Of a stretch of 64,000 nt of DNA, positions 1,945 to 29,124 are shown piece after piece. The position numbers were made by a program, and so were the translations under genes. This DNA is from a virus. The stretch's first letter is position 1, and each line of letters begins with the position of its first letter. The DNA is taken from the IMG/VR virus record IMGVR_UViG_3300015189_000002, positions 2,452 to 66,451 of that record; one strand, 5' to 3'. The notes beneath the pieces are model-generated. The model had not been told where the DNA came from and did no database searches. It saw only the letters and a list, made by a program, of their open reading frames with translations.

Positions 1945-4900
1945 TCACAACAGTACGTCCGCCCTGGTTGCTCCGCGCTTGGTTCCGGTGTAGTAGATGG
2001 TCTGTGGGCGAGCACTTACTCCTCGATAGATACCCTGCTTCAGGTATGCTGACTGGCCAGTGAACAGATTTTGACAGGCAAGGTTGTTAACAATGTTTAC
2101 GCCATTCATCTCCACTGTAAGTCGACCAACACCTGCCGTAAGTCCCCAGGTTATCCCGACGTACATGTCAACCCAAGTATCGAGTGGAATAGGGTTGGCA
2201 CTCATGTTGAAGGTTGACGATGTATCTCCCAGAGTTTCTACAACAAAGTAGGGATTGGCAGTACCCTTGGTCATACCAAAGTCAATATTTGGACCGTTGG
2301 GACCAGCGACAACATCATCTCCGTGCCACTGTGTAAAGACTATCCAGCCGTTACCGCCAATACTATCTGGGTCATCATCAACAGCCCATCCCCAACCGTA
2401 CAGCGTCTGATAGGAAGCCAGATAGAATGAGTACCCCCACCACATCGTCTGACCATTAACAGGGTTTCCGGTGTCTGCAATACTGGCACGCAACTCAGCG
2501 CGCTCTGCGCTAGTGCCACCGTTCGTGTAATCACCATTAGCAACTATGTATCTTGCAGTACTTGGGTATCCCGCACGAGCTGGAGTGGTAACGATTGCCA
2601 GCTGAGATGGACGTGAGTACTGTCCATTGTCGACTACCCAGCCTGTATTAAAGCCTGACTGATAGTTACCAGTCCAGAGTGCCGTTCCGCCTGTACCAGC
2701 AGCCACTGCGATTGCAATAGTAAACTGCTTAATTGAGCTTGGAGAGGTAGCGTTGCTGGCGGTGATAGAAATAGTTGAACTGCCTGCGACGGTTGGAGTG
2801 CCGGACAGTAAGCCCGTAGAACTCATTGTAAGGCCGGGAATTGATCCAGAAGAGATCGTGTATGTGACAGGTGCTGTTCCAGCCGAGACTGCCAGTTGAG
2901 TGCTATACGCAACCTGACAAGTTCCACCTGGTAGAGACACTGTTGAGATTACTGGTGCGACTCCTGCGGCTACAACTGTCATCGTGCGTGCTACTGTTGC
3001 GTCAGGTGCTGTAGTGTTATGCGCCGCTACTGTGTAAGTAAAAGACCCTACCGTCGTTAGAGTGCCAGACAGTAAACCAGTCGCAGCATTCAAAGTAAGT
3101 CCGGTTGGAAGCGCTCCTGCTGTGATTGAATACGTTGGAGCAGGAGTACCTATTGAGGTAGTAAAGTTGTAAGAAATTACCGTACCGACTACGCCAGTCG
3201 AGGGTGGAGTAGAAGCGTTCAATACAGGTGCAACATTTACAGGACCAGTTCCAGAAGGTATGCTAACTGGAATAAGCTCAAGTTGTGAAGGAATGTTCCC
3301 ACAGACCTCAGTGTATGGAATAGTCACATTACAGAACTCTGAACTTCCTACTCCAGAAAGTCGCTCTACTCCGATATTCCCGACACCTACAAGTGACAAG
3401 TTGCCGAAGGGATCACGCATCTGGTAGGTACTTTTTGACTGCTGTAGTGCTATGAGGTTTATTCTCTGTTGGCGAGCAGAGATGTCAACCCTGTCACGCA
3501 GATGCACAGTAAGACTTCCACTCATTCCAAGTGAAGTGCCGTAGTTCTTTTTACGGCCTCGGTCAATAAGAATGAAAGACTCTTCTTCAATCTCTTCAGA
3601 GTAACTATCCGATACTACGGAGTACAGTAAGAGATTTTTCGTCTCGTCATTCAGATTCAACAACCAGTAATCTGAACTAATAAGCGTCTGCTGGACGGCA
3701 AAAGGATTACCGTCAGACTCAAGTAGAATGCCAGAACGATATGCCTGTTGAACTACAGAGTATCCATACGTCTGTCCACTCGCTGCAGTCCAGTCATGGT
3801 AATTTGTTCTGTTGATGTCAGTTGTTTCAAAGATCTTTTCCCACTGGTAACTTCCAGCGATAGCGCGATACACTCTCCATGTCAAGAAAGACGAGTCAGC
3901 AGGAGACTGACTCCAGTCTATGTTGACATAACCAAGAGTATCGTAAAGATTTTCAGTAGTGTACAGGACTGGGTCAGGAGCAACATACGCTGTTCCAAAA
4001 GTATGGGTATCAGAACCCCAGAATCCATCAGAATCCTGAATCAGTACTACTACCTGATAGGTATTAGAGTTTGACAAGATTGTAACTGGAGGCGCGTAAG
4101 ACAGGTTAGTACCTTTAATCGTTCCGCTATTAAAAAGTACTTGTGACTTATCTGCATTGTAAAAAACGACCATGTAGGCAACCGCTGGATTGATCGCGTC
4201 AACAGTCCAAGTAATCATAGGAGCGCCCGAGTCAACATTGCCACCTGCTGTTGGATAAGTAATCCCAACAACTGGAGGATCAGTAACTCTGAAAAGTCGA
4301 TAGTTAGTAAAGTCTCCAGCGACATTCTCACTGTCCCAAACCTTTAGAGACCAGCGTAAAACAATATCTTTCTCTACTGAAGGGATGGTAATAGAAACAG
4401 CATTACTTGTTGATACTACCTTTCCAGTGTCATAAATCAAGACACCGGAATCATTCTCTTCAACAATTACCTGATATGCAGTCTGAGTATCTCCCGTCCA
4501 AGGATCAGTGAAGACCCACGAAAAGGGAATAGTTGGCGCGAAAAGAATGCCAATGTTTGCGCTAGGTGCCTGATTGTAAGCTGTTGGAGGATGTGTAACA
4601 GTAAAAAGATTTCCAGCACTGTAAGGACCAGCAACCCCGAAGAGGTCTATGCCCCTGGCGCGCACATACCAAGTTCCACTCGACAACTTAAGTTGAGTAA
4701 TGGTCGGAGAGTATGCAGTAACTCCCGATACCCTTCGGCCATCATTGGGTCCTCTCGACCCTGGAGGCTCGGTAACAACTTTTAATCCAGTTGTAAAACC
4801 AGCATCAGTAGCAAACTGCCATTCTGCTCGCTGAAGTTGCCCATCAGGTGAAACAAGAGTAGCAGTCAGAATTGGATTCGGAATATTCGTACTGCTAACT

Positions 4901-21734: not shown

Positions 21735-23633
21735 CTACCTCTGTTTCTTCGGTCGGAGGTGATTAGGAATAGCAAGTCCCATACTCCCACCGACGACAGG
21801 TGGCATCGGAGCCTGTAGTCCGAAACCTGTGCCAGGGAAAGGAATTACTGTGCCTTCTGTTCCGGTCGATTGAAATGACTCGCTGATATCAAAGTCTTCA
21901 CTGACTGACGTTGCTCTGATAGATGTTACACCTCTGCGGTATGTCCTGTCACCCATGAGGGTCGAGCACACTCCGGCCATAGCGTCCGCTAAGTCTTTCG
22001 AGCCGCCTACTGGGTGGTCAATCTTCTTGCCGGTGTCAGTCAACTCCATGAGCTCTTGAACGGCAACCTCAACTAGTTTGTCGTCACCCGACTTAATGTA
22101 CGTCTTGTATGGAGGAAAATCTATCCGACGCTCATAGATCGCTTCGCGGAGGTCTTCGTAGGGAAGAGTACTCTTATCAACAGATAGATAGTCAACGCGA
22201 TACTTTTTCTTACGAAGTTGCTGCATAGTATCTGTAGACTGAAATCCGTCCATCGTAACCGAGTAGATTCTAAAACCACGATCTTCTTTGAGCTCATAGA
22301 GTATGCGCCGCACATCGGAGAGGAGTATCTCAGTTCCAGGCCGTGCGCGAATTCGGACAAGACAGTCGATGACAATATGAGGCTTCTTCTCGCCATCAAT
22401 CTCAATGACTGCATCAACATACCCCATCGCAAGTCCGAGTGCATCGCCATCCCCAGAAGTCGCTATGTCAATATGACAGTGACGCTTGCGTGGATCGCCA
22501 GTTCCTTGAAACCAAGGTTGAAACTGTACTCGAGTTGGCGATTCCATACATGGTGACTGATCGCCATGTGTTTCTATCCAGCGCTCACGACACTCCTCAA
22601 TGCGATCCACAAGGCTAATGAAAGGATCAGATACAGCAGGAGGAATACCAGCAAGGTCACGCAAAGCCTTTTCAGGAGCGTTCTGAAACTGAAGTTTATA
22701 AGCATTAGGAACCTCGATGAGGTTTTTATTGACCACCATGTCTGCAACCAGTGATGGTATAATCGACTTGCGTTTCGTGTCATACCAGAACGAATCACGA
22801 ACACCTTTTCGAGTATAGCGATGCCAGCCTAAAGACTCCCAAATCGTCATTCGCACAACGTAAGCCTTGGGGTCTTCTAAAAACTCTTTGTACTTGCGAG
22901 CCGCGAACCCGGTTCCCTTCTTCATCTGACCGATGCAGATAATGAGACCCTTATGTCCAGCCTCACTTCCGTCCTCTGCGAAGTCAGTAAATCGAGATGC
23001 GATACGAGAGTTGATCGTGTCGTAGCCGACGTCTGCATAGTCCTTATTATCAGTGACTTGATGCGAGTCCATCTCATCAAGAATGCCGGCGAGGATATTG
23101 TAACCCTCAAAGGTTGTTTCAGAACTGTCGCCAGGAAGAATCCAAATGTCCTTGTTGAATCTGATCTGCTTTGTGTACTTCGGATCATGAGGGTAGTTAT
23201 TGATGAACCAATCACTGTACTTAATGCGAGCAAAGATGTCACCGAATACAACTTCGGATGCCTGCTTCGCGCTGGTCGACATCTGCATAAAAGCAATACG
23301 AGAGCCAGGAAGCAGATCAAAAAAGTCTTGGGGGTCGCGCAGGCACAATACCCAGTGCGCCATGTACGGCAATGCAATACTGGCAAAGGTGGTCTTGCCG
23401 ATGCCGATACCACCAGTAACTAGCGCTCGCTCATAATTCCCGATGCGAGATCCGTTTACCTCTTTACCGAAGATATCGACAAGCGCCTTTAGTAGACCCG
23501 GTCGTATCTTACTCTCGATGTCGAGATAACCCTCTCCAAGAAACTCTTTGATGGACGCGGGCTTCTCTTCAAAAGCTGGATGTGCAATCAGCCAGACTGC
23601 TTCTTCGGCAACCTTCTTTGCATCAAAACTCAT
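21735..23633 (-). CDS. terL: Terminase large subunit
   Basis: Walker A GGIGIGKT, Walker B GILDE, nuclease motifs HIDIATSGD, VTMDGFQS and SKDLADA. Probable start MSFDAKK at 23633 (ATGA overlap). Confidence 0.92.
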   Translation of the reverse strand: MSFDAKKVAEEAVWLIAHPAFEEKPASIKEFLGEGYLDIESKIRPGLLKALVDIFGKEVNGSRIGNYERALVTGGIGIGKTTFASIALPYMAHWVLCLRDPQDFFDLLPGSRIAFMQMSTSAKQASEVVFGDIFARIKYSDWFINNYPHDPKYTKQIRFNKDIWILPGDSSETTFEGYNILAGILDEMDSHQVTDNKDYADVGYDTINSRIASRFTDFAEDGSEAGHKGLIICIGQMKKGTGFAARKYKEFLEDPKAYVVRMTIWESLGWHRYTRKGVRDSFWYDTKRKSIIPSLVADMVVNKNLIEVPNAYKLQFQNAPEKALRDLAGIPPAVSDPFISLVDRIEECRERWIETHGDQSPCMESPTRVQFQPWFQGTGDPRKRHCHIDIATSGDGDALGLAMGYVDAVIEIDGEKKPHIVIDCLVRIRARPGTEILLSDVRRILYELKEDRGFRIYSVTMDGFQSTDTMQQLRKKKYRVDYLSVDKSTLPYEDLREAIYERRIDFPPYKTYIKSGDDKLVEVAVQELMELTDTGKKIDHPVGGSKDLADAMAGVCSTLMGDRTYRRGVTSIRATSVSEDFDISESFQSTGTEGTVIPFPGTGFGLQAPMPPVVGGSMGLAIPNHLRPKKQR

Positions 23634-23875
23634 GCCGGAATCCACTGACCCTGTCGAATGAATCCATGCGTCTTGCAACTATGACAGAGGATTGAAGGAG
23701 TGACAGTCAGAGGATCTGTCTGAGTAACTGCCCAGCCTATCGACGCATTGATAGGCAGTAACGTCTCAGTTCTATCTGGAATCAGTGCGCCATCTTCGCC
23801 AAGGTAACTGAAGCAGTCATGTATCCACCAGAAGTGAACTCCGTCTTCATCCATACGAAACGTCGGAGCAGTCAT
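23630..23875 (-). CDS. Small Zn-binding protein (DUF6527-like pattern)
   Basis: LTVTPSILCHSCKTHGFIRQGQW; start MTAPTF overlaps the upstream stop. Confidence 0.55.
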   Translation of the reverse strand: MTAPTFRMDEDGVHFWWIHDCFSYLGEDGALIPDRTETLLPINASIGWAVTQTDPLTVTPSILCHSCKTHGFIRQGQWIPA

Positions 23876-24054
23876 TTCTTTTCCTTGATGCGTAGACACC
23901 TGTGAGTTACACCGCCGACACCCACCTGCGCAGTAAGGAATCCCTCACCATTAGCATGAGTGTGAGTAAGTCTCGGAACACAAGTGAACTGAACTGTGTA
24001 GGCCGTTCCGCACAGTGGACACTTAATGTCTATTCGTGCCGGAGGAGCAGTCAT
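23872..24054 (-). CDS. Small CxxC hypothetical protein
   Basis: 60 aa with KCPLCG; coupled by ATGA overlaps on both sides. Confidence 0.55.
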   Translation of the reverse strand: MTAPPARIDIKCPLCGTAYTVQFTCVPRLTHTHANGEGFLTAQVGVGGVTHRCLRIKEKK

Positions 24055-25437
24055 TCGTTCACGACGGAACTTTGCACCGGGGGCTCAAGAGCCTTACGCT
24101 GCATCTCTGGACTGGCCATACCTTCCATGACGCCTTGAATCATCTCCGGTGTGATATTCTCACGCTTGATGCCCTGCATCTCCAGAGCACGAACAGCCTC
24201 CGCGACAAACTGACGCGGATTACCCGCTGAGATCTGTGCCGCACCATTGCCTCCGATCTGTACATTCAACTTCGGACTTGCGAACCGCATGGGGTCAATC
24301 ATCTTTGCGAGCTTTACTGCCTGTTCGAAGACCTGATTCATCATCTTCGTAACCTCAGGATTCAGCTCGTCGAAGGTTTCCTCGTCCGACAATCCCCGCT
24401 CAAGTCGCTTGGTGTTCGCGGCCATGAGGACACCCATACCGTCGATGATCGTATCCGCGTTACGGCTGCGGAAAAACTTAGACAACTCTACTGGCTCGGC
24501 TCCAGGCACAGAACACACCGCCCCGTCTCTGTAGTACTTGCATTGATTGGCGAGAGAACAGGTATTGCAGAGAAACTTGTCGCCCTCTTTTTTACCCTGA
24601 ACTGCCTTAGTAAAAGGTGACACCGTTGTTGACGGTTTGTGATCTGTGTCACTCGAAGTGATGTCAGGCTTACTTCCGTCTGCTCGGGTTCGGAACTTAT
24701 ACAGCTCCATGTAATGCTCGCCAGCCCACACAGCAGACTTGATATTGAACAAGCATCTGTTACGAGGTATCTCAAGTTCGACAGGCTTGAATCCCATCGA
24801 GCTTGCCCACTGAGGATGCTGGGCTACCTTGAGGTAGGTCTCTTCATTTCCAGACGGTAGATGAACTCTGCCACCTTTTGCAGCAGCGCGTGGCTCAACA
24901 TCAGCAGACCTAAACCCCAGGCCGAAAGCAAACTTGTACGAATAGAGCCCGTGTACGTGGATGATGGCATCTGGATAGTCCTCCTGAAGTTCTTTGATCT
25001 TCTTGATGAAAGAACGTCCCGGTCCAGTGTTGCCATTTGGGAGCTCGGTAATGACGACTCGATGTTCTTGTCCAAAGACTGGACGCTCGTCGGTTGGTAC
25101 TCTTTTATCAAGACATGCTTCATGCGACTCCCCCGCAGGATTCTGGAGCATGTCTTCAAGAAGTTCTAAGTCTTCCCCGTACATCCATGTCGGGTAAACC
25201 GCTTTGGGACGGTCAATTCCGTGATCTGCATCAAGCTCTGCCGTGCCTTGATCCCCAACAAGAAGGAGACGCCAAGGATAAGTTCGTCCGAAGTATAGAG
25301 AGGCGTGCTTCTCGGGGTCGATATGCTTCTTAATAAGAAGCCCTCGATCCCAAGCAATTTTGTACTCACCACACTCAACCAGCTCGCGAATGTAATTGTT
25401 TGGATTTCTATAATCGGAACCATGTTTCAGTTGACAT
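24051..25437 (-). CDS. Pre-terminase protein (possible small-terminase fusion); probable true start at 25437 across a 7-nt coding gap
   Basis: The tracked ORF 24051-25184 stays open upstream to the HNH stop (25443), with no ATG/GTG/TTG. ATG TCA ACT GAA ACA TGG TTC CGA at 25437 is one base out of frame. The protein has a Cys4 cluster (CNTCSLANQC...C) and a helical C-terminus. Confidence 0.65.
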
Positions 25438-25442
25438 GGCTC

Positions 25443-26027
25443 CTAGATCACCACCTTGAGTGGAAAGATTGGTGAAACACTAAACGGCCATTTTGCTGCT
25501 TTGCTGCAATTACAGTGAGTACAGGCCGGGCGTAAATTAGACAACATCTCTGGTCCACCCTTTGATATAGGTTTTACGTGATCCACTGCTTCAAAAGGTC
25601 GAACTTTACAGATCCAGCATAATCCACTCCACATGGACATGCGATCAGCAAATTGTTCCGCAGTGTAGAGAACTACCACTACAGCCTTTTCTGCAGCTCT
25701 TCTTTTTCGACGACGCTCGCCTGCTGTGACAGGACTACAAGGATATTCAGATGCAACTACTAAGTATTGAGCGTAATTCCACAGTCGCCATTCCGCACTA
25801 CGAGCTTTTATTTCTTCCTTGTTTCTGATGTAATACTCAGCATCACGTTTCTTCATCGCCGCAGCGTTTTTAAGTTTGTATTCAGCATTGTAAACCTTTA
25901 CACAATGCTTACATTTCGAGCTCAGGTTGTATCTTCTCGAACCATCAAAATAAAAGTCAGAGTAAGGTTTAGACTCTTTACACCTGCTACATTTCTGCAA
26001 CGCAGGAATCAACAGCTCAGTACTCAT
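25443..26027 (-). CDS. HNH endonuclease with N-terminal zinc ribbon
   Basis: CSRC...CKHC, then CWIC...VDHVKPISKGG...NLRPACTHCNCSK. GGAGG Shine-Dalgarno before the ATG at 26027; visibly AT-richer than its neighbours. Confidence 0.9.
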   Translation of the reverse strand: MSTELLIPALQKCSRCKESKPYSDFYFDGSRRYNLSSKCKHCVKVYNAEYKLKNAAAMKKRDAEYYIRNKEEIKARSAEWRLWNYAQYLVVASEYPCSPVTAGERRRKRRAAEKAVVVVLYTAEQFADRMSMWSGLCWICKVRPFEAVDHVKPISKGGPEMLSNLRPACTHCNCSKAAKWPFSVSPIFPLKVVI

Positions 26028-26207
26028 TACACCTCCTCTATGCAAGATACGTTACTAGGGTATGGAACGCAAGCAAGGACCATGTCTTCAAAATGACACA
26101 GGATTCATTCTACTGGTGCTGTCTTCTGCTTTTGCAAACTAGGCTAAAGAACAAATTACCTCACCGCGCCGATAACGTTTTGGGCGCTATCGGCATGGAG
26201 GCCATGC

Positions 26208-26299: not shown

Positions 26300-27160
26300 T
26301 TGTCCGACAACGCTCTCGCTGATCAAATTGCCAAACGCTATATAGCGCGGCGAGACGTGAAAGCTGTACAACACAAAGACGGATCTTGGAGCCCGCACAC
26401 CAAGTCGGGCAAGCATGATGGGGAACGGATACCCTGGGGAAGAGCTGACCTCAACGCTCACCTTGCTGGATCAAGTACGTTCGGTCATTACCTGCTGGAT
26501 ACAGACTCAACGACCAAACTGTTCGCCTTTGATATCGACCTCGAACAGTGGAAGCCAACTGAACCTGACCGCAAGTTCTACTACCCCGAAGGCTGGGGGA
26601 AAGACCCTCTAGAAGAAAAGGATAGTCCAGACTATCCTTCTTATGCCCCGCTTTTGTTCGATCCAAGATTAGCCTGGCAAGATAGACGCCACCCGAGCCG
26701 CTCATGGCTGAAGTATCAGATGAAGATGATTGCCCATGAGCTTACGGTAGTCATCGAGCGTGACCTTGAGTTGCCCTGTGCGGTCGCATATAGCGGCGGC
26801 AAGGGCGTGCATGTGTATGGCTTTTGCGGCAAGGTCCCAGCTGCCGAAGCAATCGAAGGTGCTCACATTGTCCTCGACACTCTCGGTCACTGGCGAGCAT
26901 CGCGGGGAACAAACTTCTATAAGGACACCAACGAGGACGTTCTGCGTGGTTTCCAAAACTTCTGCATTGAGGTATTCCCGAAGCAAACGACAATGACCGA
27001 TGATTCACTAGGGAACTTGATGCGCTTACCTCTAGGACGCAATATGAAAAGCACCGACCCGACCTTCTTTATCGACATGACCTCGCCGATGGGAGTTATG
27101 GCCCCCGTTGACCCCATGCACGCGCTTGCTGGTAACCCTTGGAAGCGTTACGGAGAATGA
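26300..27160 (+). CDS. Archaeo-eukaryotic primase / primase-polymerase
   Basis: AEP motifs FAFDIDL (DxD), YSGGKGVHVY, IEVFPKQ and GNLMRLPLG. Confidence 0.85.
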   Translation: MSDNALADQIAKRYIARRDVKAVQHKDGSWSPHTKSGKHDGERIPWGRADLNAHLAGSSTFGHYLLDTDSTTKLFAFDIDLEQWKPTEPDRKFYYPEGWGKDPLEEKDSPDYPSYAPLLFDPRLAWQDRRHPSRSWLKYQMKMIAHELTVVIERDLELPCAVAYSGGKGVHVYGFCGKVPAAEAIEGAHIVLDTLGHWRASRGTNFYKDTNEDVLRGFQNFCIEVFPKQTTMTDDSLGNLMRLPLGRNMKSTDPTFFIDMTSPMGVMAPVDPMHALAGNPWKRYGE

Positions 27161-29124
27161 GTGCCGAGGGGGGCACTAATACAACCTTCAAGCGCAAGTT
27201 GGCCGAGCGAAAGGCCGCTGCGCAGGCAGAACTTGCCCGAATACTGAAAGAAAGAGGCGCAGACCCCGCCGTAGTACTCGAAAAGCATGACGACGACCTA
27301 GTCCCTGATGAACCTTTCTCTCTTACGGATACAGACCGTGAGATGGATAGAATTGTCGGGGGCATTGACATTCTCGACGCTTATTCGCGCTGGTGCGGAA
27401 AGATGACACCGAAAGTCAAGAATGGCCAGCGCGAATCCATTATGATCAGTTGCCCCAAGCCCTCGCATCCAGACAAGAAGCCGAGCGCTTGGATCAACCT
27501 TGACGATCAAGTATGGTTCTGTGGAGGCTGCCAGGAAGGCGGCGACGCCCACGACATCGCTGCATACCACTTCGGATTCTCAGCACCGGAGTACAAATCA
27601 GGAGCAAAGTTCCATGAACTCAGACGCGAAATGGCAAAAGACTTTGGATTCACCTTCACAACACTCCCTGGAGGTGTTATCGTTGTTGAGCCTCCTTCAA
27701 CAGAGTCAGAAGAGGAGGGAGAAGAAGATGCGGAGGCAAGTACTGGTGTTTCGACTGCAGGTAGCACTGTTCCTGCTGGTACTGTTTCTACTCCCGAGCC
27801 TGGGACTGATGCTGACGTAATCAAGATGTTCGAGAGTGACATGGATAGCAATATCCTCATTCCAACTCTCGATTGGCAGTCGATCGTCCCAAAGGATACC
27901 TTCCTCGACACCTATATGAGGGTAACTTCACTCGATGATGTCGCAGAAGAGTATCACTTCTTCAATGGACTTCTCGCCTTGGGCTTCGCCCTGGGGCGAG
28001 ATGTTCGTCTTGATGACACTCTTCCGGTCTATGCTAACCTGTTCGTCTGTACATTGGGCCATTCGGGATCAGGTAAGTCAAAAGCGCGTTACCATCTCGA
28101 CTCATTGCTTACCGACGCGCTTCCTCACGTCTGGAGTGACGAGAACAGTAAGGGTGTTCGGAAAATCTCGTCACCCGGCTCAGCAGAAGTACTGATCCAC
28201 AACTTCCAGAAGCCAGTTACTGACCCAGCGAACCCGAAGGTGGTTCTGTACAATGCACCTGTTCGTGGAATCGTTGACTTCAGTGAGCTCAGTGCGCTAA
28301 CTGGTCGATCAGGACGTATTGGAAACGTCATCGTTCCAACCTTAATGCAGTTCTATGACATGGAGAACCTTATCTCCACCAGTTCAATGTCAACCGGCAT
28401 TAAAGAAGCTGCACTGCCGTTTGCCAGCGCACTTACGACGACCCAGCCGCGTGCATTGAAAGATCTACTTAGCAAGTCCGACGTGGCTAACGGCTTCTTG
28501 AACAGATGGATCTTCGTATCTGGAAACGACAAGCGCAAAGTCGCTGTCGGGGCCGCGAGGATCGACATTACACCGGCGATTGCTCCACTTCAGAAAGTCT
28601 TTGCGTGGGCTGGTGCGTTTGGCCCGGACGAGTTTATGACATGGAGCCAAGAAGCAGTAATGCGCTTCACGGAGTTCTTCCATTCAACTATCTGGCCGGC
28701 ACAGCGCGAAGACACAAGCACTGACCTACTGACACGTACCGACCTGCTGATGAAAAAGCTGATCCTACTCTTCACTGCGAACCTCAAACTCAAAGAGGTT
28801 CCAATCGAGTGTGTTGAGCAGGCGATTGCCTGTTGGGATTACATCATCGGCTCGTATGCAATACCTGCTGACGAGATTGGCAACACACTTGGCAGTGAGA
28901 TCAGCGAGGCAGTTATGAACGTTGCCCGCAAGCAGTACAAGCTCAACAAAAAGGGCGTGACACTTAATCAGGTGGCGCGATCTCTGGCGAAGCGAAAGTA
29001 TCCCCACGAGATGCTACTCAAAACCTGCGAAAGTCTTGTTAAACTTGACTACCTTGTGGTTGTCAAGTCGCCAGCTGGCATGAGGGGTCGTCCGACAGTC
29101 CGATACAAGATAGTGGGGGCATGA
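27157..29124 (+). CDS. Zn-finger plus P-loop helicase-like replication protein (DUF3987-like)
   Basis: CPKPSHPDKKPSAWIN...CGGC zinc domain, Walker A GHSGSGKS, GFLNRWIF, C-terminal wHTH-like end (GRPTVRY); ATGA-coupled to the primase. Confidence 0.8.
   Translation: MSAEGGTNTTFKRKLAERKAAAQAELARILKERGADPAVVLEKHDDDLVPDEPFSLTDTDREMDRIVGGIDILDAYSRWCGKMTPKVKNGQRESIMISCPKPSHPDKKPSAWINLDDQVWFCGGCQEGGDAHDIAAYHFGFSAPEYKSGAKFHELRREMAKDFGFTFTTLPGGVIVVEPPSTESEEEGEEDAEASTGVSTAGSTVPAGTVSTPEPGTDADVIKMFESDMDSNILIPTLDWQSIVPKDTFLDTYMRVTSLDDVAEEYHFFNGLLALGFALGRDVRLDDTLPVYANLFVCTLGHSGSGKSKARYHLDSLLTDALPHVWSDENSKGVRKISSPGSAEVLIHNFQKPVTDPANPKVVLYNAPVRGIVDFSELSALTGRSGRIGNVIVPTLMQFYDMENLISTSSMSTGIKEAALPFASALTTTQPRALKDLLSKSDVANGFLNRWIFVSGNDKRKVAVGAARIDITPAIAPLQKVFAWAGAFGPDEFMTWSQEAVMRFTEFFHSTIWPAQREDTSTDLLTRTDLLMKKLILLFTANLKLKEVPIECVEQAIACWDYIIGSYAIPADEIGNTLGSEISEAVMNVARKQYKLNKKGVTLNQVARSLAKRKYPHEMLLKTCESLVKLDYLVVVKSPAGMRGRPTVRYKIVGA

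Follow-up and report, generated by a model that had tools for sequence, protein, structure and literature searches.

A seven-nucleotide interruption of a phage small terminase gene beside an inserted HNH endonuclease gene: a probable coding gap of a mobile cassette

How can a phage make its small terminase subunit from a gene whose conserved first codons and whose body lie in two different reading frames? This question is raised by the gene terS in a 64,000-nucleotide (nt) stretch of viral DNA, positions 2,452 to 66,451 of the IMG/VR record IMGVR_UViG_3300015189_000002, which is hereafter called the window. The record is a metagenome-assembled genome of 71,403 bp with a CheckV completeness of 92% and a GC content of 53.5%. 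On the minus strand of the window, a gene for an HNH endonuclease is followed by a terS open reading frame (ORF) that stops after nine codons, and the remainder of terS resumes in the +1 frame behind the heptanucleotide TTATAGA. Probably, these 7 nt form a true coding gap carried by a mobile cassette of an HNH homing endonuclease, and terS would be expressed by means of a short ribosomal bypass.

The anatomy of the locus (Table 1) can be read directly. The stop codon of the HNH ORF (TAG, 25445-25443) is followed by 5 nt (GAGCC) and by an ATG (25437-25435) that opens a mini-ORF, residues 1-8 of which agree with the family consensus M-x-T-E-x-W-F-R. From 25406 on, the +1 frame starts with AAT CCA AAC AAT TAC (NPNNY; NPNNYIRELVE…), reads NPNNYIRELVECGEYKIAWDRG… and stays open to 24051. 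It runs through 74 codons without ATG, GTG or TTG before meeting the called ORF 24051-25184 (377 amino acids, aa), which is all that the gene caller gives for the terS body. A preliminary description of the window had already noted these coordinates and frames, the startless run and the Shine-Dalgarno (SD)-like motifs, and all of them hold on the minus strand. In the same way, its proposal that removing the 7 nt gives a continuous protein is borne out, since excision of 25407-25413 yields MSTETWFR-NPNNY, which fits both the family consensus and the closest homolog P0004, beginning MSTETWFRNPDSY. The exact spelling of the insert is ambiguous (GATTATA = ATTATAG = TTATAGA) because GA stands on both flanks. 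The terS body matches the profile phrog_6902, 'terminase small subunit', with an E value of 4.5e-68 over residues 11-448 (profile positions 14-457 of 469), and the large terminase is a separate ORF downstream of terS (21735-23678).

A search for terS homologs over 5.8 billion proteins returned 828 sequences, typically 455-462 aa long, with N-termini reading uninterrupted M-[STAP]-T-E-[VTA]-W-F-R-N-P-x-x-Y-I-R-E-L-V-E. Contiguity of W-F-R-N-P in relatives, which the preliminary description had singled out as telling, is found almost throughout: M-x-T-E-x-W-F-R-N-P is contiguous in 118 of 119 homologs, and the sole exception, P0101, is a start-call artefact with the DNA TTG AGC ACC GAG GCG TGG TTT AGA AAT CCG. 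At the DNA level, all 14 loci that lack the HNH gene are contiguous across the junction. As the homologs read contiguously, the window holds exactly 7 extra nt (25407-25413), and alignment with the contigs of P0004 and P0002 (L001 and L002) places them as a clean 7-nt insertion between the Arg and Asn codons.

The coding sequence on both sides of the insertion is well preserved. The terS body is 80% identical to the full-length P0002 and P0004. Compared with L001, nonsynonymous divergence (pN) is 0.13 and synonymous divergence (pS) is about 0.75, a saturated value, and no stop occurs in 451 codons. The 66 residues directly after the gap share 82-85% identity with ungapped homologs, and the eight codons before it remain at the family consensus. 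By this substitution pattern terS is under strong purifying selection, and by its homology the startless frame is real coding sequence. Gene callers shorten such gapped terS genes from about 458 aa to 377, 429 and 437 aa, and they conceal the cassette.

Why the gap exists is better explained by the insertion of the HNH gene, which co-varies with the gap and had been missed in the preliminary description. The first four codons of the HNH ORF, ATG AGT ACT GAG (26027-26016, MSTE), are the ancestral terS start, and homology to the terS of L001 ends after codon 4. On the strength of this alignment, the HNH gene lies within terS, behind codon 4, and has the native start of terS as its own, and the cassette supplies a rebuilt second one, in which the SD GGTGATC is followed by ATG TCA ACT GAA. 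An AGGAG at 25444-25440 overlaps the HNH stop and precedes the rebuilt ATG, and in each of the four gapped cassettes that were found, the sequence (A)GGUGA(U) stands 5-9 nt upstream of the rebuilt ATG. SDs of the GGUGA type are complementary to the 3' end of 16S rRNA. Duplicated starts are also present in related cassettes. For instance, the HNH gene of the contig L003 begins GTG ACA ACT GAA GTT (M-T-T-E-V) and its rebuilt terS ATG ACA ACT GAA GTC TGG; in L058, an in-frame ATG ACG CAA GTC (M-T-Q-V) precedes the HNH and terS restarts with ATG ACT CAG GTC TGG. The HNH gene is not present in the closest terS relatives, and the contig of P0008 (L055) represents the empty site for L003, with a homologous intergenic region up to the terS start and neither HNH nor gap.

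HNH relatives were traced by two protein searches and their contigs were examined. The terS of L003, a contig found in two samples whose HNH is 55% identical to that of the window, reads TGG TTC CGA TTATCGT AAT CCC with a 7-nt insert; the UUA-initiated gap that the preliminary description would expect in relatives is kept there as CGA UUA U plus an Arg codon. L056/L057, together with two contigs of the same gene geometry, come from four samples (HNH identity 49-52%) and carry the 6-nt insert TGG TTT CGC TAA CGC AAC CCG, an in-frame stop flanked by two identical Arg codons. L058, a JGI contig with an HNH identity of 43%, has a 1-nt insert, TGG TTT T AGG AAT CCC, that creates UUU_UAG_G. Two further cassettes are without insert: terS is uninterrupted in L059 (HNH about 40%; W-V-R-N-P) and in L064 (38%; W-F-R-N-P), where codons 4-5 are changed from E-A to Q-S. 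Of the 6 HNH-bearing loci, 4 are interrupted, and of the 14 distinct loci without the HNH, none is; a Fisher test worked out by hand gives a p of about 0.003.

In a tree of 40 HNH family representatives, the six terS-associated HNHs form one clade (support 91/79), all inserted at terS codon 4-5. The window and L003 are sisters (99/97), and L056 pairs with L058 (86/61) despite their different gaps. Two more HNH relatives, P0149 and P0135, also belong to this clade. Each gapped terS has a closer ungapped relative, with identities of 80% (window to P0002), 94% (L003 to P0008), 57% (L056 to P0083) and 62% (L058 to P0047). The cassette is therefore scattered over the family, as expected of a mobile element or of repeated loss. 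Moreover, the same 7-nt architecture in the independent assembly L003 makes an assembly artefact very unlikely. A role of the HNH as a conserved packaging partner of cos phages, of the HK97 gp74 type, was considered and rejected, as only six of the terS loci examined carry the HNH and it splits the terS 5' codons.

When the HNH was compared by tblastn with 50,697 phage records (E<=1e-8), only Mycobacterium, Gordonia and Streptomyces phages were matched, and from these isolated-phage relatives the hosts are probably Actinobacteria. A search of IMG/VR for related loci with the HNH found none. Other HNH relatives (P0124, P0126 and P0132) lie in unrelated contexts (helicase, portal/MuF and antitoxin-like) and are uninformative.

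Table 1. Features of the gapped terS locus in the window, in the order in which they are read
Feature	Position	Strand	Details
Native terS 5' untranslated region and SD (GAGGAGG), now driving the HNH ORF	26028..26085	minus	aligns with the upstream region of terS in L001, up to and including ATGAGTACTGAG
HNH endonuclease ORF, 194 aa + TAG	25443..26027	minus	candidate homing endonuclease; Pfam HNH PF01844, E 5e-8; phrog_1035, E 8e-30
GGTGATC, SD of the rebuilt terS start	25446..25452	minus	within the last HNH codons; read directly
Predicted 15-bp hairpin	25411..25450	minus	minimum free energy -17.4 kcal/mol; z -4.78; 0/200 shuffles as stable
Rebuilt terS start, 0-frame mini-ORF MSTETWFRL*	25408..25437	minus	ATG TCA ACT GAA ACA TGG TTC CGA TTA TAG; stop 25410-25408
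CGA (Arg8), proposed take-off (P-site) codon	25414..25416	minus	shared by both 7-nt-gapped genomes
7-nt coding gap TTATAGA	25407..25413	minus	UUA; 0-frame UAG 25410-25408; terminal AGA 25409-25407
terS body, +1 frame, 451 codons + stop	24051..25406	minus	resumes at AAT (Asn); phrog_6902 match, homologs, pN/pS

The four gaps follow a common grammar. As spelled, every gap would bring a slow codon into the A site of the ribosome, which is UUA in the window and L003, UAA in L056 and UAG in L058. Triplets on which the P-site tRNA could re-pair are placed so that the Asn codon comes next: UUU to UUU at +1 in L058, CGC to CGC at +6 in L056 and CGA to CGU at +7 in L003. In the window, CGA to AGA at +7 joins two Arg codons with two of three bases matched and a mismatch at the first. 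CGA precedes the gap in both 7-nt genomes and in none of the 14 ungapped relatives, which use CGT, CGC, CGG, AGA or AGG. From the take-off codon on, the 0 frame runs CGA UUA UAG in the window and CGA UUA UCG UAA in L003.

The most economical account of these features would be re-pairing of the peptidyl-tRNA, as a slip in L058 and as short hops in the other three, restoring W-F-R-N-P. The HNH gene would have entered terS just before the Trp codon, seizing the native promoter, the ribosome-binding site and the first four codons, and the cassette would bring an SD of its own together with a new terS 5' end, rebuilt as ATG-xxx-ACT-GAA-xxx-TGG-TTC-CGA. Invariant sites with little synonymous freedom, such as W-F-R-N-P, are of the kind that homing endonucleases target. 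Restoring this conserved coding sequence would recreate the putative nuclease target, and the cassette may carry the micro-insert between Arg8 and Asn9 because the rebuilt target would otherwise be restored. The micro-insert would disrupt the target in DNA, while the ribosome would ignore it and the protein would stay unchanged. In the window, ribosomes would initiate at ATG 25437 and would pause when CGA, with peptidyl-tRNA-Arg, occupies the P site and UUA, followed by UAG, the A site. Most likely, the peptidyl-tRNA would then un-pair and re-pair 7 nt downstream at AGA (25409-25407), the proposed landing codon, and decoding would resume at AAU. Such a short bypass would yield wild-type M-S-T-E-T-W-F-R-N-P. 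Of the candidate bypass or +1 recoding put forward in the preliminary description, the coding gap is upheld by its recurrence and by the homologs, while the recoding, its type and its efficiency, together with nuclease immunity, are what we infer from comparative sequence. As a speculation, the differing inserts at one boundary would fit scars of imprecise repair at the nuclease cut site, filtered for recodability.

Several points weigh against a bypass in a homing cassette. AGA is not cognate to the CGA-reading tRNA-Arg, and the match is perfect only in L003 and L056. Only 8 codons separate the take-off site from the start, and peptidyl-tRNAs that stall while still so short are prone to drop-off. 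The phage decodes UUA at other places too, so the pause at this codon may be modest: TTA is used in frame 60 times in a crude gene set of 53 long ORFs, with one of these codons in the terS body and three in the HNH gene. With these uses, a bldA-type switch, about which the preliminary description had been uncertain, is not supported, even though TTA is the rarest sense codon of the genome (3.3 per 1000). Moreover, the genome is a metagenome assembly and the sample consists of only four gapped lineages. A pattern of TGGTTY, 4-30 nt and AAYCC… found no gapped terS in the IMG/VR, JGI metagenome and GTDB genome collections, and a pattern with the gap after an Arg codon gave 37 IMG/VR hits, all unrelated chance matches, and none in JGI metagenomes, although the latter pattern would miss gaps of the L056 and L058 types. 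The generalised pattern matches every positive that was retrieved, and, L058 being a JGI contig, the collections searched lack the relevant samples, so that these negatives say little about the true frequency of the gap. Finally, L059 and L064 have the HNH in terS and no gap, which means that the gap is not obligatory for this nuclease clade.

As two cassettes are gapless, other escape routes must exist. In L064 (441-1070), the rebuilt terS start reads M-T-T-Q-S-W-F-R-N-P and the HNH keeps the ancestral M-T-T-E-A. This suggests another escape from self-cleavage, by substitution of two non-conserved codons at the insertion point.

The alternative that survives best is a simple +1 frameshift that would translate part of the insert and give W-F-R-Y-R-N-P or W-F-R-L-R-N-P, the two extra residues being tolerated. 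It could proceed through Tyr-tRNA reading UAU out of frame at the hungry UUA, or through a shift on UUA with UAG in the A site. It is a serious rival for the window because AGA is an imperfect landing site for the CGA-reading tRNA and because UUA_UAG_A resembles the UUU_UAG_G of L058, a classic +1 site of slippery codon plus stop. The gap in the window holds no +1-frame stop, and its last three bases form a +1-frame Arg codon (AGA) that is synonymous with that of L003 (CGT) despite two base differences, as expected if the triplet were translated in the +1 frame and the R-N-P context were needed. On the other side, the W-F-R-N-P junction is nearly invariant and without length variation in 118 homologs. 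The in-frame gap of L056 would require readthrough of UAA under this explanation, and its CGC-UAA-CGC is a textbook context for a hop. In L003, UUA is followed by UCG instead of a stop, which disfavours a shift on UUA at that locus. Re-pairing at +1 is not open to the P-site tRNAs, and in terms of a prfB-type site both CGA to GAU and UUA to UAU re-pair poorly in the window, with no SD-like run in ACAUGGUUC; the sister cassette L058 does combine a re-pairing P-site codon with an A-site stop as in prfB. Furthermore, the same gap grammar in phage phiHau3 gave bypass and not +1 by mass spectrometry (PMC10732093). A +1 frameshift in the window is, on balance, improbable, yet it deserves to be kept in view.

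It is distinctly unlikely that recoding is unproductive and terS non-functional, either as a parasitic lesion in a defective or helper-dependent genome or as an assembly artefact. Such an outcome would suit a metagenome-assembled contig without an isolate, and homing endonuclease insertions can be deleterious. Nevertheless, four diverged lineages from independent samples carry an interruption at this one boundary, with recoding-competent features and otherwise intact ORFs, the rebuilt MSTETWFR codons stand at the family consensus, and no other lesion of terS was seen. The recent inactivating insertion considered in the preliminary description loses weight with these lineages, with the low pN (0.13) against pS (about 0.75) and with the absence of internal stops. 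Non-repetitive 7-nt insertions are also atypical as sequencing errors.

A truncated or alternatively initiated TerS, for which W-F-R would be dispensable, seems very unlikely. Its translation would begin at a non-canonical codon (for example CUG 25430-25428, or a later AUU), or else ribosomes would reinitiate behind the 9-codon leader. A CUG in the frame of the body does lie 9 nt after AGGAG, and the leader stops 1 nt before the body resumes. On the contrary, the frame of the body is without ATG, GTG and TTG for the whole startless run in the window, the CUG is forced by the conserved T-E codons and lies 17 nt from the SD in L003, the four gapped genomes share no conserved candidate start, and all of them, like the family at large, keep M-x-T-E-x-W-F-R. 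An HNH-TerS fusion by readthrough of the HNH amber codon, an alternative that the preliminary description had drawn from the shared frame of the HNH ORF and the startless terS frame in the window (TAG 25445-25443, with no stop between), is extremely improbable, given that the distance from HNH stop to Asn modulo 3 is 0 in the window and L058, 1 in L003 and 2 in L056, that the HNH stops of the out-of-phase L003 and L056 are TGA, and that the fusion would put G-S-D-Y-R in place of W-F-R.

Use of TAG as a sense codon in a recoded genetic code was set aside as well, since 17 of the 53 long ORFs end in TAG and the gap separates two different frames. Another candidate was the predicted hairpin over the rebuilt start as a gap-specific stimulator. 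The HNH stop, the AUG and part of the SD fall in its 5' arm; the 3' arm, ACA UGG UUC CGA UUA, reaches into the gap and ends there. The equivalent in L003 is comparable (-17.1, z -3.44), while those of L056 and L058 are weak and not significant (z -1.1 and -0.8). A 7-pair core is common to the four gapped mRNAs with weak covariation. The hairpin was not found in the empty-site relatives L055, L001, L002 and L004, and the ungapped L044 forms a similar GGAGCC:GGUUCC pairing. With the weak forms in L056 and L058, the little covariation and the pairing in L044, this candidate was rejected, and the predicted hairpin more likely couples terS initiation to HNH translation than stimulates recoding.

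Some observations concern the surroundings of terS. Two small ORFs lie between terS and the large terminase gene (terL) on the minus strand (23630-24054). One of 60 aa has a weak match to a 'translational regulator' PHROG, and the other of 89 aa matches DUF6527/BubE; BubE-like genes are kept at the same position in L001, L002 and L055. Directly upstream of terS/HNH, on the plus strand (26300-29124), a divergent AEP-type primase-polymerase (AEP-TOTE) is followed by a large DUF3987-like protein, an arrangement also seen in L003, L058 and L059. The divergent intergenic region of ~250 nt between the AEP gene and terS/HNH probably carries both promoters. In parallel, the large terminase of L002 (4902-7383) is called as a protein of 1601 aa with matches to Intein_splicing, LAGLIDADG and PT-HINT, some of them faint. 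This suggests an intein with its own homing endonuclease, which the terL of the window (647 aa) does not have, and packaging genes in the phage group of the window and L002 seem to be a hot spot for selfish nucleases. In the Rhodococcus phage ReqiDocB7 (NC_023706; L061), the terS homolog (152-1548) is annotated as two ORFs, gp001 (152-1039) and gp002 (1093-1548). It was considered as another instance of the same gap and rejected as unrelated, because the split lies near residue 296 and not at the N-terminus; a frameshift, a sequencing error or a different recoding site could account for it.

Three known systems can be compared with the terS cassette. The parallel with phiHau3 drawn in the preliminary description is apt, as the anatomy of the gap is the same and bypass has experimental support there (PMC10732093). 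UUA-initiated gaps in terL are described for phiHau3 and for the StrepC.1 and S. catenulae prophages (Smith et al. 2013, as cited in PMC5009743; RNA Biol 2023, PMC10732093); 7-nt gaps were reported in two prophages, and the phiHau3 gaps were read as host-state sensors (PMC10732093). When phiHau3 g6/7 with UAA for UUA was expressed in E. coli, the junction peptide detected by mass spectrometry skipped the insert, and a +1-frame stop inside the gap did not lower recoding (PMC10732093). The gaps extracted from the phiHau3 record are GGC[TTA CTCC GGT]AAG and TCT[TTA ACGG TCC]ACG. Common to both systems are an actinophage-type packaging gene with a short frame-disrupting insert that is missing from homologs (10 nt in phiHau3, 7 nt in the prophages), UUA at the head of the insert with a 0-frame stop close behind, and Trp 1-2 residues before take-off. 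The insert ends are likewise synonymous with the take-off codon: GGC…GGU and UCU…UCC in phiHau3, CGA…CGU in L003 and, with a mismatch at the first base, CGA…AGA in the window. Unlike the phiHau3 gaps, which are in the large terminase, that of the window is in the small terminase, 8 codons from the start. A bldA-style on/off sensor is unlikely in the window phage, which uses TTA elsewhere, and its sister cassettes swap UUA for UAA or use a 1-nt UUU_UAG shift. Moreover, the window gap is coupled physically and phylogenetically to an HNH inserted 12 nt upstream, whereas the phiHau3 paper (PMC10732093) makes no mention of a homing endonuclease. The phiHau3 record (NC_018836; L063) contains a putative HNH gene, gp1 (591-905), about 1.4 kb upstream of the twice-gapped terL (2329-3995, annotated as misc_feature only).

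The second system is that of phage T4, where MobA and the gene 60 gap were described as one mobile element in which the gap blocks self-nicking (Manning & Atkins, bioRxiv 10.1101/2022.08.31.505936; PMC5009743); the mobA/gene 60 cassette goes back to Bonocora et al. 2011, as cited in bioRxiv 10.1101/2022.08.31.505936. In both cases, an essential gene has the gene of an HNH-family homing endonuclease directly on its 5' side and the insert falls in a conserved stretch near the 5' end. The insertion splits the host ORF and the cassette adds translation signals and codons. A stop or hungry codon follows take-off, and the landing codon, a proposed one in the window, is a synonym of the take-off codon. 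Among close relatives, the endonuclease comes and goes with the gap, here with the exceptions L059 and L064. Self-immunity through the gap would apply to the window cassette by analogy with T4. The differences are that the gaps measure 7, 6 or 1 nt instead of 50 nt, that the gap lacks a take-off stem-loop and an internal SD, that a long nascent-peptide signal is missing as well (8 residues made), and that the target is terS and not the topoisomerase II large subunit, in phages of probably actinobacterial hosts. The tblastn search of phage records described above detected no close similarity of the HNH to T4-like phage sequences.

The third comparison is with prfB-type +1 frameshifting and with short hops across a slow codon (Weiss et al. 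1987 and related work, as reviewed in PMC5009743). CGC UAA CGC of L056 has the codon-stop-same-codon context of classical hops, UUU UAG G of L058 is a slippery codon followed by a stop as in the prfB and Euplotes +1 sites, and a hungry A-site codon serves as the trigger throughout. Unlike prfB, the window site is without an SD 3 nt upstream. Unlike classical hops, which are known from low-efficiency laboratory constructs or isolated cellular genes, the terS gaps form a natural allelic series in an essential phage gene with a mobile nuclease.

The terS cassette works like the phiHau3 gaps and like MobA/gene 60, but belongs to neither. Full-text literature searches found no paper tying a homing endonuclease to a terminase coding gap, and gene 60 bypass with its MobA link has been described as isolated and its biological function as still puzzling (bioRxiv 10.1101/2022.08.31.505936). 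The locus joins both ideas, with a gap grammar of the phiHau3 style 12 nt from an insertion of the MobA style, and the T4 case no longer stands alone. More tentatively, the cassettes may represent a second, independent system of homing endonuclease plus skipped micro-insert, in which an HNH clade homes into terS codon 4-5 and draws self-immunity from 1-, 6- or 7-nt 'savior' indels at the nuclease target that are kept only if ribosomes slip or hop over them. If this were true, phiHau3-type UUA gaps, too, may be scars of nuclease immunity and not sensors of the host state, and programmed bypassing over short distances would be a general and recurrent way to hide DNA changes in invariant protein motifs. 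The 7-nt UUA, 6-nt in-frame UAA and 1-nt UUU_UAG alleles at one boundary could serve to test the rules that separate slippage, hopping and bypass, and also whether coding gaps are selected as nuclease self-immunity, as in the T4 cassette.

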